Shown: one piece after another, positions 53,088-56,038 of the stretch | Position numbering within the stretch: the first letter of the stretch is position 1 | How the letters are laid out: every line of letters begins with the position of its first letter | Source of the DNA: a virus | Lineage: Duplodnaviria > Caudoviricetes | Length of the DNA stretch: 64,000 bases | IMG/VR virus record: IMGVR_UViG_3300035497_000279 | Coordinates: 32,001 to 96,000 of that record | Direction: 5' to 3' (one strand) | Made by a program: the position numbers and the translations under genes | The notes under the pieces: generated by a model | Databases searched by the model: none | What the model was told of the DNA's origin: nothing | Seen by the model: the letters and a program-made list of their open reading frames with translations, nothing else

Positions 53088-54098
53088 CTAATTAGCCCAT
53101 TTAAGTCTATAATCATAATAATTTTTAGCCCCTTCAGGAGCTCTTCTTCTAGATCTTACATCTGAAATCTTGATTATATATGGGAGTGTAGCCCACGAAT
53201 TATCAATTCCATTCTTATTCCATACATCAACTGTATTACTCATGCTAGTGTAATAATCATAAACCACTTTATTAAATTCACATAATATAAGTGGGTTAGA
53301 ATCTTCTATAAATTGAGCATGGAATCCTAAAGAGAATTTGCCAAAATCTGTAGGATCACTAAAATCAGATCTTGGTACATCTGTAAAGTATACTCCTGTT
53401 GCTTTAGCATAATACATTATAGTTTCACCATCAGAGTTTACAAGGAATTTATATACAGAGAATTGATCTGATAATATATTATTTTTAATATGCTTTTTAT
53501 ATGGAGATATCTCTCCAGTCTTAGTTCTTCTAACATATTCATCATAAGCTTTAACCATTGTATATAATTCAAGATATGCTGAATCTGTAAAGCTTAAAGT
53601 AAAATCATATCCATTATCAGATTTTAAACTATGACCACGTATTGATATTTCTGTACCCATAATATTTGCTGTAGTGGTTTGAGATTCTGAAGATATAGAT
53701 GGTAGGTCCATCTTTGATGTAACAGAATTACTTAACAAATTCATAAATGGAGATTTGTTAGGGCAATTTGTGGTTTGTAATTGCCATAATGAATTAGTAT
53801 ATCTATTTTTTGCATCTATAAAGAATGGGATATCTTTTAAAGCCGTACGCAAATCACCAGTAGCTGAAAATATATGTAAATCTGGTTTTGTAAAGAATAG
53901 GAATTCTTTTAATACATTTTCATATATATATGGATCTATGTAACCATATCTATTAAACCTATCATACCATCTAATATCATCTTTAGAGAATATTAGATTT
54001 TGACCCATCACGTTAGACATCTGTTTGATTTCAAATGTCTTTTGTGGGTGACTATATTTGAGCGTACCATTCCCATCTAGTGGGTCCATCCAAGCCAT
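53088..54098 (-). CDS. tail-tube-fold structural protein
   Basis: FLFFTKPDL, DFTLSFTD, YAKATGVYF..VP; GGAGGAG RBS supports ATG 54098; late promoter 54128-54140. Confidence 0.55.
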   Translation of the reverse strand: MAWMDPLDGNGTLKYSHPQKTFEIKQMSNVMGQNLIFSKDDIRWYDRFNRYGYIDPYIYENVLKEFLFFTKPDLHIFSATGDLRTALKDIPFFIDAKNRYTNSLWQLQTTNCPNKSPFMNLLSNSVTSKMDLPSISSESQTTTANIMGTEISIRGHSLKSDNGYDFTLSFTDSAYLELYTMVKAYDEYVRRTKTGEISPYKKHIKNNILSDQFSVYKFLVNSDGETIMYYAKATGVYFTDVPRSDFSDPTDFGKFSLGFHAQFIEDSNPLILCEFNKVVYDYYTSMSNTVDVWNKNGIDNSWATLPYIIKISDVRSRRRAPEGAKNYYDYRLKWAN

Positions 54099-54213
54099 AA
54101 AGTCTCCTCCTTTCAATCTATTATAAATTACATAGATGTTTTCCGTATGCGAATTTACCATAAACCAAATATAATTATGATAATATACTATATACGTGGT
54201 TATAGAAAGTATT

Positions 54214-54568
54214 AAGAGATTGCAGAACTCATTAAAAAGAAATCCCTATTCTTCACTAATACGTTGCAATAAATTATTGCCAAATTTTAATTAAGAAAGG
54301 ATGATTTCAATTATGAGTAATTATAGGAAATATACATCAACTGGAGGTTTGAATCCATTCTGGGTTGAAGAGCAGTGTGAGGCAAGAAGAGCCAGAGAAA
54401 GACAGCAGGAGGCAGAGGAATGTCTTAACTACGAAAAGGCTCAGGAAACAATGCGGTTAGAAGCTAGAATGGAATTTTTAAAATCTCATTCAGGTGATCC
54501 TAGAGACTTGGAACTTGCTAGAATAGCATTAAACGGTTTTAGATAAAAACATATTTCTGCAATCTCTT
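54214..54568. repeat. 14-bp perfect inverted repeat flanking the small ORF
   Basis: AAGAGATTGCAGAA (54214-54227) / TTCTGCAATCTCTT (54555-54568). Confidence 0.85.
54313..54546 (+). CDS. small helical hypothetical protein inside a fold-back structured transcript
   Basis: AGAAAGGA RBS before ATG 54313; early-type motif 54182-54192. Confidence 0.65.
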   Translation: MSNYRKYTSTGGLNPFWVEEQCEARRARERQQEAEECLNYEKAQETMRLEARMEFLKSHSGDPRDLELARIALNGFR

Positions 54569-54619
54569 TTATTTTTTGCCATAAAACATAGTATTAATAT
54601 CGAAAGGAGGATGAAACTC

Positions 54620-56038
54620 ATGAACGAATGTCAGAGACTACATGAAACAATAGTTAGAGATGTTTATGATATAATGACTGATGTCAAAGACTTTGATGAA
54701 GTAGAGTGGATGAGGCGTAAGAATAATACTGGCTCAATCGCTAGAAGAGCTTCCAATCTAATCTTAGTATTTCCTGTCATTGTATCAACGTCATTGTCAA
54801 TACAGACTGCAAGTGTAATTTCTAAAGCTATCGAGAGGAAGTGTGTATCACTTCTTCAAATACTTTTCAGTGCAATGCAGATTTCTTCTGTAGACAATAT
54901 GTACGACTACATAAAACAGTTTCATACCAATCTAAATCTTAAATCCAGTTTAACTCTGGATGATTTTATTGATGTTGTAGATACTCTCGCTAATGAGGGT
55001 GCTATTACTATCACTGATAAAGATGCATACGAGGCCGTTAAAGAAGATATGCATAATATCAACTTCTATCTTAAGAATGAGTATAACCCTACATCATTAA
55101 ATGACTATGAAGTTCGTAAAAATATGTATGGAGAGTCAGCCGTTATTCTAAATGAAAAAAAGAACGATAACTATGCCCAAGTAAGAATTAGTTTTGATAA
55201 GAAATATCTTGATACATTTTTAAATGGTATGGGTGGTAACGGTGGTAATGGAAACGATGGTAACGGTAATGGCGGAGGAAATAACAATAATGGTGGAGGT
55301 AATGTAACATACCGGAATCCAAGAGGTACAGAACGTTATTCTGACGTATATAAAGATCAGGTTGATTATTTCCGTTATCAGTTAACTCAGCCAGATGTTG
55401 ATAAGGCTAATGAGTTAATGCCTACAACAATGATTGTTAATTTTATTGCCACACAGGATGGTAAGAAGATTCAGACATCTGGAGTTATTGGTGTTAAGGC
55501 TAAGTTATATCCTGTTGATGCTATGGATATCGTTGCTAGAATCTCTTCTAAATATAAAGAGTCTAATGGCTTATTTAATTTAGTAAGAGCTTCTACAAGA
55601 GAAATTTCTTTTTTCAGAGATTTAGCATTTGCTATAGATAAAGCTAAGCTTGATGCTGTTAATATGGCTAGAGAGTCTAATAATGCTAAGATCTTTAAAG
55701 TACTTGAAAGAAGAGCAGCAAAAAATAAATTCTCAACACTACTTAAAAAGAATGATGCATCTCCAATTACATCATTGGTATTGTCCCAGGATGAAGTTGA
55801 ATATCTTAAAAAGTATTCCGATATTAATATGGAAAAGTCATATATAACAAGAAGTATTCTTGAGAAGTATAATCTCATGGATATTATTATTGCAGATGAG
55901 TCTTTAGAGGTTGCTAAATTCTTATTTGATGATGGTGATGGTATATATGAAGTTTTACCATTTGATGAATTAGAAAAGCAAGCTAAAGATTCTTCATATA
56001 AGAAAGTTATAAATCTTATGAGTAAATTAAATCGTTAG
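54620..56038 (+). CDS. putative virion structural protein with Gly/Asn linker
   Basis: Late promoter AACA-tagtat-TAA 54585-54597; GN-rich segment ~55225-55300; RBS favours ATG 54620. Confidence 0.6.
   Translation: MNECQRLHETIVRDVYDIMTDVKDFDEVEWMRRKNNTGSIARRASNLILVFPVIVSTSLSIQTASVISKAIERKCVSLLQILFSAMQISSVDNMYDYIKQFHTNLNLKSSLTLDDFIDVVDTLANEGAITITDKDAYEAVKEDMHNINFYLKNEYNPTSLNDYEVRKNMYGESAVILNEKKNDNYAQVRISFDKKYLDTFLNGMGGNGGNGNDGNGNGGGNNNNGGGNVTYRNPRGTERYSDVYKDQVDYFRYQLTQPDVDKANELMPTTMIVNFIATQDGKKIQTSGVIGVKAKLYPVDAMDIVARISSKYKESNGLFNLVRASTREISFFRDLAFAIDKAKLDAVNMARESNNAKIFKVLERRAAKNKFSTLLKKNDASPITSLVLSQDEVEYLKKYSDINMEKSYITRSILEKYNLMDIIIADESLEVAKFLFDDGDGIYEVLPFDELEKQAKDSSYKKVINLMSKLNR

Follow-up and report, generated by a model that had tools for sequence, protein, structure and literature searches.

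[quoted passage not shown] In B. subtilis hbs, S. aureus icaR, and RNAIII/hld, such 5′/3′-UTR interactions comprise 7–14 nt and affect stability or translation (PMC7821165). The hbs interaction, 14 nt long, is described in that source, which cites Braun 2017, as protection from RNase Y, and both the hbs and the icaR interactions were reported not to be conserved among close relatives (PMC7821165). A related arrangement is found in the type I toxin mRNAs hok and aapA1, in which the full-length mRNA is closed by a 5′–3′ long-distance interaction and the Shine-Dalgarno sequence (SD) is sequestered until 3′ trimming frees it (PMC5416894).

Here, we analysed a stretch of 64,000 nt (the window), which corresponds to bases 32001–96000 of a 235,843-bp IMG/VR virus record. 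The original prediction for this DNA, made from the letters alone, described a fold-back, translation-locked early mRNA between two late operons, likened it to the hok and aapA mRNAs, and proposed an RNA switch or timer that governs a potent small protein. The comparison with relatives presented below indicates that the element is a genuine conserved RNA architecture, whereas the toxin-timer interpretation is unsupported.

By analogy, the element is functionally most like the Firmicute 5′/3′-UTR interactions (hbs, icaR, RNAIII), with which it shares the pairing of 5′ UTR and 3′ UTR within one mRNA and, in the case of hbs, the length class (14 nt). It differs from them in that the 3′ partner forms the final pairing ahead of a U tract and appears to replace a terminator hairpin instead of accompanying one. 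In icaR, the 3′ UTR masks the ribosome-binding site (RBS), whereas a separate leader hairpin is found here, and, unlike hbs and icaR, the present case concerns a phage early mRNA whose pairing is conserved, with covariation, across a clade of jumbo phages. With canonical intrinsic terminators the element has in common a stable stem (≈ −21 kcal/mol) followed by a U-rich tract of ~ 11 nt, and it occupies the exact position expected of a terminator hairpin, but the loop has 327 nt instead of the canonical 3–8 nt. A shallow literature search found no description of a terminator with a whole gene as its loop.

Genomic context and the early transcription unit

The nearest cultured relatives of the proteins around the unit were the uracil-DNA jumbo phages AR9/PBS1, Staphylococcus jumbo phages, and phiR1-37, at ~ 26–28% identity in tblastn searches. 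Judged by these matches, the phage is an uncultured, AR9/PBS1-like jumbo phage, and the AR9 transcription scheme is the relevant background because AR9 and PBS1 are among its nearest cultured relatives. In AR9, the early promoters of the virion RNA polymerase (vRNAP) have the form AAATATATATTAT-N6-G, and the late promoters of the non-virion RNA polymerase have the form AACA-N6-TA/G (PMC5312081).

The element lies in a predicted early transcription unit of ~ 380 nt, with putative ends at a transcription start site (TSS) near position 54198 and a U tract near 54577, between two divergent late virion operons. On its left, a leftward tail-tube-like virion gene is served by an AACA-N6-TA late promoter at 54129–54140 (− strand; motif scan), which is followed by an SD and an ATG. 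On its right, another AACA-N6-TA promoter at 54585–54596 (+ strand; motif scan), kept in relatives, precedes the rightward gene of a 475-aa protein (54611–56038), which matched a PHROG virion structural protein and is homologous to AR9 g214. The flanking genes matched virion-protein PHROGs and the Pfam family Phage_TTP_15, and the embedding of the unit between two late operons was borne out. The longest open reading frame (ORF) of the tail-tube-like gene (53088–54161, − strand) has its start, at 54161, in a position that overlaps the gene’s own late promoter. The true start is probably the ATG at 54098 (336 aa) and not 54161, since the positions of the SD and of the promoter favour it; the identical Logan contigs also call a 336-aa protein. 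An AACA-N6-TG match at 54548–54559 (+ strand), within the 3′ UTR, was weighed as a candidate for an internal late promoter and dropped, as it is absent from the relatives and is probably due to chance; its would-be TSS, G54559, falls within the 3′ arm of the helix described below.

The early-promoter-like core ATATACTATA occupies 54183–54198 (+ strand) together with the predicted TSS, G54198. The strong early promoters of this phage have the core ATATATTATA and a G five bases downstream of it; ATATACTATA is one base off, with C where the strong promoters carry T. When scored with a position weight matrix (PWM) based on 23 strong sites in this genome, the core reached 14.1 bits and ranked 27th of 471,602 positions; it lies one base from the early motif that had been placed at 54182. 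A k-mer enrichment for the early motif returned only SD sequences and coding repeats. In all relatives with enough flanking sequence, an early-promoter-like core lies 1–21 nt upstream of the 5′ arm, and the syntenic early promoter of AR9 is experimentally active, with a mapped TSS. We must also note that AR9 vRNAP was reported to be sensitive to single promoter deviations (PMC5312081); given this sensitivity, the one-base deviation of the core at 54183 counts against the explanation that we favour.

Outside the window, at least 7–9 copies of an element of ~ 38 nt, either GAACTTCCTTAGTATTTCTCTAAGAGTTGAGACTATATC or a variant of it, are present in the same genome (G000:C1, near 19205 (−), 26762, 178059 (−), 209875 (−), 222231, 223523, and 226127). 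This repeat holds an internal hairpin (CTTAG..CTAAG) and could mark the boundary of an intron or homing element or have a regulatory role.

Pairing of the transcript ends

The 5′ arm of the long-range helix (54214–54227, + strand) and its 3′ arm (54555–54568, + strand), which begins 8 nt past the stop codon of the small gene, were detected by a repeat finder as 14-nt segments with 100% complementarity, 327 nt apart. The perfect 14-bp pairing claimed for these two segments, just ahead of a T tract, is therefore present. The helix contains five G-C pairs and has a predicted energy of ≈ −21 kcal/mol; in the minimum free energy (MFE) structure, weaker A-U pairs lengthen the 5′ arm back to ~ 54203. 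The U tract TTTTATTTTTT (54567–54577, ~ 11 nt, + strand) follows directly, is invariant in alignment A3, and is presumed to be the termination site. When positions 54200–54580 were folded, the MFE structure held both the 5′–3′ helix and the pairing of the leader with the SD and AUG, as the original prediction had proposed; the fold had z = −4.2, and 0 of 100 shuffled sequences were as stable. The interior of the mRNA, folded without the arms, had no unusual structure (z = −1.06).

The genome has eight distinct perfect 14-bp inverted repeats with loops of 100–800 nt, compared with ~ 2.7 expected from Markov-random genomes. A single repeat of this kind is not significant alone, and the significance of the helix therefore rests on the relatives. 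Among 279 early-promoter-like sites in the genome, this unit had the best duplex between a leader and the segment before a U tract, at −21.1 kcal/mol, with the next at −16.9 kcal/mol. None of the other sites had a comparable helix, and the phage therefore does not use this arrangement as a rule.

Conservation and covariation of the terminal helix

A near-identity DNA search and a tblastn search with the small protein against cultured phages gave no match. Relatives were gathered through the downstream 475-aa virion protein, which, at ~ 40–75% identity, retrieved four genomes from IMG/VR and 17 metagenome loci. For the small ORF itself, a homologue with 64% identity was found on a short JGI contig, and identical copies were present on two Logan contigs. 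The covariation set comprised 14 syntenic loci with full transcripts (40–75% identity of the neighbouring protein) in a plain MAFFT alignment of 636 columns.

Every locus with enough flanking sequence has the same order of elements, that is, an early-promoter-like core, the 5′ arm, the leader and ORF, the 3′ arm, the U tract, and the late promoter. In the relatives, the 5′ arm consists of (A)AAGAG and a variable part and starts 1–21 nt after the predicted TSS; the 3′ arm consists of a variable part and CUCUUU and is followed by AUUUUUU(U) and then by the late AACA-N6-TA promoter. The outer AAAGAG/CUCUUU pairing is kept, and the inner helix sequences vary. The loop, formed by the whole leader and ORF, has 327 nt here and 290–440 nt in the relatives.

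The 5′–3′ helix was present in the MFE structure of 14/14 full transcripts, and it was the sole consensus helix that RNAalifold returned over the 636 columns. Of its 11 consensus pairs, seven have compensatory changes; 89% of the helix cells are paired and 16 are changed on both sides. These counts are conservative because two rows (L014 and L024) are misaligned by one column. The covariation score was 0.388, compared with 0.215 for shuffled alignments, and 0 of 500 shuffles reached any of the five measures; slid controls were 42–63% paired, with scores of at most 0.16. Four further members of the family were looked up afterwards, and three of them (L028, L031, and L030) lie in the same synteny. 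Two of these fit the predicted helix with new inner sequences, AUUAUUA/UAAUAAU in L028 and ACUGUGA/UCACAGU in L031. The helix directly adjoins the U tract in all 14 relatives as well as in L028 and L031.

There are 37 G-U pairs in the duplexes, and the predicted stability is greater for the + than for the − strand (−21.9 versus −18.7 kcal/mol, p = 0.05), which points to selection on + strand RNA and not on DNA. At the level of comparative sequence analysis, these results demonstrate that the 5′–3′ helix is a conserved, covarying + strand RNA structure that always abuts the U tract. Two homologues of the small gene in other genomic contexts (L033:701–934 and L003:114–341) are without the architecture of promoter, helix, and U tract.

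Masking of the ribosome-binding site

The leader segment at 54227–54253 (+ strand) was predicted, from the MFE structure and pairing probabilities, to pair with the start codon through 54227–54232 and with the SD through 54239–54253. Its target is a weak SD (AAGGA, 12-nt spacer) with the start codon at 54313, both within 54293–54318 (+ strand), and the pairing probability of the RBS is ~ 0.9 in this unit. The SD and AUG were paired to a leader segment in 14/14 transcripts, with probabilities near 0.9, and the pairing sequences differ among the relatives (CUCC/GGAG, AAACCCCC/GGGGGUUU, and AAAUC..CCU/AGG..GAUUU). The mean probability of the RBS being paired was 0.74, compared with 0.50 for the RBS of the neighbouring late gene folded from its own TSS (p = 0.0002) or 0.59 for the same RBS in a −110 window (p = 0.017). 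Compared with dinucleotide-shuffled leaders, the leader:RBS duplexes had a mean z of −2.1 and a Fisher p of ~ 1.5e−9, a value to be read with the relatedness of the loci in mind, as they are not independent; the duplex of the window itself was marginal (p = 0.076). Within the genome, the RBS pairing of this gene ranked 24th of 177 and was not exceptional. RNAalifold found no consensus pairs in the leaders alone, either for all 14 or for the nine closest, owing to register shifts between relatives, and the anti-SD helix thus shows no covariation at the level of the alignment.

The pairing of 54227–54253 with the SD and AUG is present and recurs in 14/14 relatives, but it is modest and its register is not conserved. 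The folding predictions suggest that the masking is real but modest, as would suit a low level of translation and not a lock. When the last 32 nt were removed in silico, the mean SD pairing in the 14 relatives was 0.73 both with and without them, and therefore no refolding switch driven by 3′ trimming is predicted. This result, together with a relative (L030) that keeps the anti-SD without the terminal helix, suggests that the terminal helix and the leader hairpin are two modules that appear to be independent. In the early/late arrangement of the phage T4 lysozyme type, a late promoter lies between the anti-SD and the SD; a motif scan found no late promoter between them here.

The leaders also share a CCU(G/U)CAC(A) motif right 3′ of the anti-SD (54240–54262 in the window; also in L002, L006, L015, L018, L022, L023, and L025), whose CAC is invariant in alignment A6. 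This motif could serve to bind a protein. The leaders likewise have in common a small inner hairpin (AUUGn..nCAAU), and the changes in its stem are compensatory.

The 77-residue protein

The gene at 54313–54546 (+ strand) encodes a conserved protein of 77 aa, with homologues at the same locus in ~ 17 loci. Nearly all relatives have a small ORF of 65–108 aa in the same place. The family is marked by an N-terminal KY..GGLNP.W motif (GGLNPxW) and a C-terminal F.F.K.HS..PEDL.LA..I.G motif, with a variable middle part; these same-place ORFs with shared motifs indicate that the small gene is real. A profile search retrieved 70 clusters at 50% identity, all of them stand-alone proteins of 63–142 aa. 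One of the two copies found in other genomic contexts (L033 and L003) sits upstream of an RtcB-like gene.

AlphaFold (AF2), run with a 15-sequence alignment, gave a model with a pLDDT of 90, in which a long helix (residues 15–58) is followed by a short one (residues 63–74). The product is predicted to be a charged, soluble helical hairpin without a membrane segment, which agrees with the earlier view that it is hydrophilic and no classic membrane toxin. The protein had no match in Pfam, PHROGs, PDB profile and sequence searches, the BFVD fold search, or the ESM Atlas, and the family, profile, and fold searches revealed no homology to any known toxin.

Possible functions of the terminal helix

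A scan of 53900–54800 found no local terminator-like hairpin, in agreement with the original prediction, whereas the early gene cluster at 10–30 kb has 21 canonical terminators with a hairpin and a T tract, compared with 4.3 expected. In one relative (L030:1049–1180), the 5′ arm is missing, and a perfect local 13-bp hairpin with U’s stands just upstream of a vestigial GUCUUUAUUUUUUU. Such a natural swap is expected if the long-range helix supplied the terminator function. Moreover, the 5′ arm was predicted to be mostly unpaired in 3′-truncated RNAs (0.32 here, mean 0.51) and would therefore be available when the 3′ arm emerges. We propose that the long-range helix replaces the local terminator hairpin, with the whole leader and ORF (327 nt) as the loop, and that it would stop early transcription ahead of the late virion gene. 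The same helix would clamp both ends of the mRNA and protect it against exonucleases, and the small helical protein would probably be made at a low level from this stable message. On balance, we think that the helix probably does serve as both terminator stem and end-clamp in an mRNA that also has a weak, masked RBS. If the helix is indeed the cause of termination, hairpin loops of several hundred nucleotides are within the reach of a multisubunit RNA polymerase, and the 5′ end of a message could govern whether transcription continues into the late genes.

Some points weigh on the terminator part of this proposal. With more than 300 nt in the loop, the pairing of the two arms may be too slow to bring about intrinsic termination, and the helix could instead act only after termination. 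The CUUUAUUUUUU tract persists in L030, which has no helix, and may thus be conserved for another reason. A more far-reaching version, which we regard as doubtful, is a split intrinsic terminator, at which the early RNA polymerase stops only if the transcript’s own 5′ end is available for pairing with the 3′ segment as it emerges. If it were true, read-through into the late virion operon would follow whenever the 5′ arm was occupied or removed, be it by a protein, a ribosome, a nuclease, or a factor made late, and the element would be a promoter-specific or state-dependent terminator with an entire gene as its loop.

The helix may also form after a stop brought about otherwise, by the U tract alone or by a factor, and serve only as an end-clamp or processing stalk, which would protect the ends from RNase J1, RNase Y, and 3′ exonucleases or offer an RNase III site like that of the rRNA processing stalk. 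A helix that is real and covarying agrees with this reading, as does a 5′ arm that begins 1–9 nt from the predicted TSS in most relatives, a position suited to 5′-end protection. The duplexes reach 13–25 bp in several relatives, which is the size range of RNase III substrates, and a precedent is given by the 14-nt interaction that shields hbs mRNA from RNase Y, as summarised in PMC7821165 after Braun 2017. The 3′ arm, however, always abuts the U tract, the local hairpin absent here is present at the other early terminators of the phage, and L030 swaps the helix for a local hairpin and a U tract; a role confined to the clamp seems rather unlikely to us. Far less probable is an inverted repeat that acts at the DNA level, either by bounding a small mobile cassette at its termini or by serving as a recombination site, or one that is due to chance. 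Taken singly, the 14-bp repeat does lie within a few-fold of the genome-wide chance level (8 versus 2.7), but synteny across deep divergence, compensatory changes, G-U pairs tolerated on the + strand only, and arms that coincide precisely with the start of the transcript and with the U tract all argue against such an origin, and direct-repeat flanks were not seen.

The type I toxin-like timer proposed originally would be a closed, translation-locked store of mRNA, which 3′ trimming or a trigger RNA would activate later to release a harmful small protein. The locus does combine the two features of hok and aapA1, namely 5′–3′ closure of the full-length mRNA and SD sequestration (PMC5416894). On the opposite strand, however, a motif scan of 54200–54580 found no early- or late-type promoter, where an antisense RNA such as that of the hok/Sok or aapA1/IsoA1 pair would start, no sigma-70-like site scored above shuffled sequences, and no Rfam family matched. 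The SD pairing is the same without the 3′ arm, which leaves no predicted refolding, and the masking, ranked 24th of 177, is ordinary for this genome. Type I toxins are hydrophobic peptides under 50–60 aa, whereas the present product is a hydrophilic helical protein of 77 aa, charged and predicted to be soluble. In addition, the gene is syntenic and core-like within a clade of lytic jumbo phages and is not an addiction or maintenance module, and we consider the timer very improbable.

The syntenic early RNA of phage AR9

The layout in AR9 is alike, with g213 as the tail-tube-like gene and g214 as the homologue of the 475-aa protein (E = 4e−15). A primary early TSS of AR9 was mapped by dRNA-seq at 181724, 340 nt upstream of g214, and was listed as the start of a 340-nt 5′ UTR of that gene (Lavysh et al. 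2017, PMC5312081, Table S2). The g214 gene also has its own late TSS at 182012 (PMC5312081, Table S3), which lies just past a long T tract. The reads reported for g214 were 0.69, 20.7, and 1427 at 5, 20, and 40 min (PMC5312081). As g214 is essentially silent at 5 min despite the early TSS at 181724, the early RNA evidently stops before it.

The AR9 transcript has the same syntenic position as the present unit, and in both an early promoter is followed by a U tract and then by a late AACA-N6-TA promoter; strong structure is predicted for the AR9 RNA as well (z = −4.7). This RNA differs in having a local hairpin in its 3′ part, and the 5′–3′ closure in its MFE structure is unlike that found here, being partly A-U only. 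Since the syntenic early transcript is mapped in a cultivable Bacillus phage and the cassette could be transferred to B. subtilis, the proposals made above are testable at the bench. The analysis also flags a widespread family of small early proteins and, between g213 and g214 of AR9, an unannotated early RNA of ~ 270 nt (NC_031039, ~ 181724–181990, equivalent to L027:3140–3406 on the − strand). This RNA ends in a long T tract right before the g214 late promoter, and its only ORF, unlike the 77-aa gene, encodes 15 aa (MFKALRTVLSIIGLQ), the end of which resembles the C-terminus of the small protein family.
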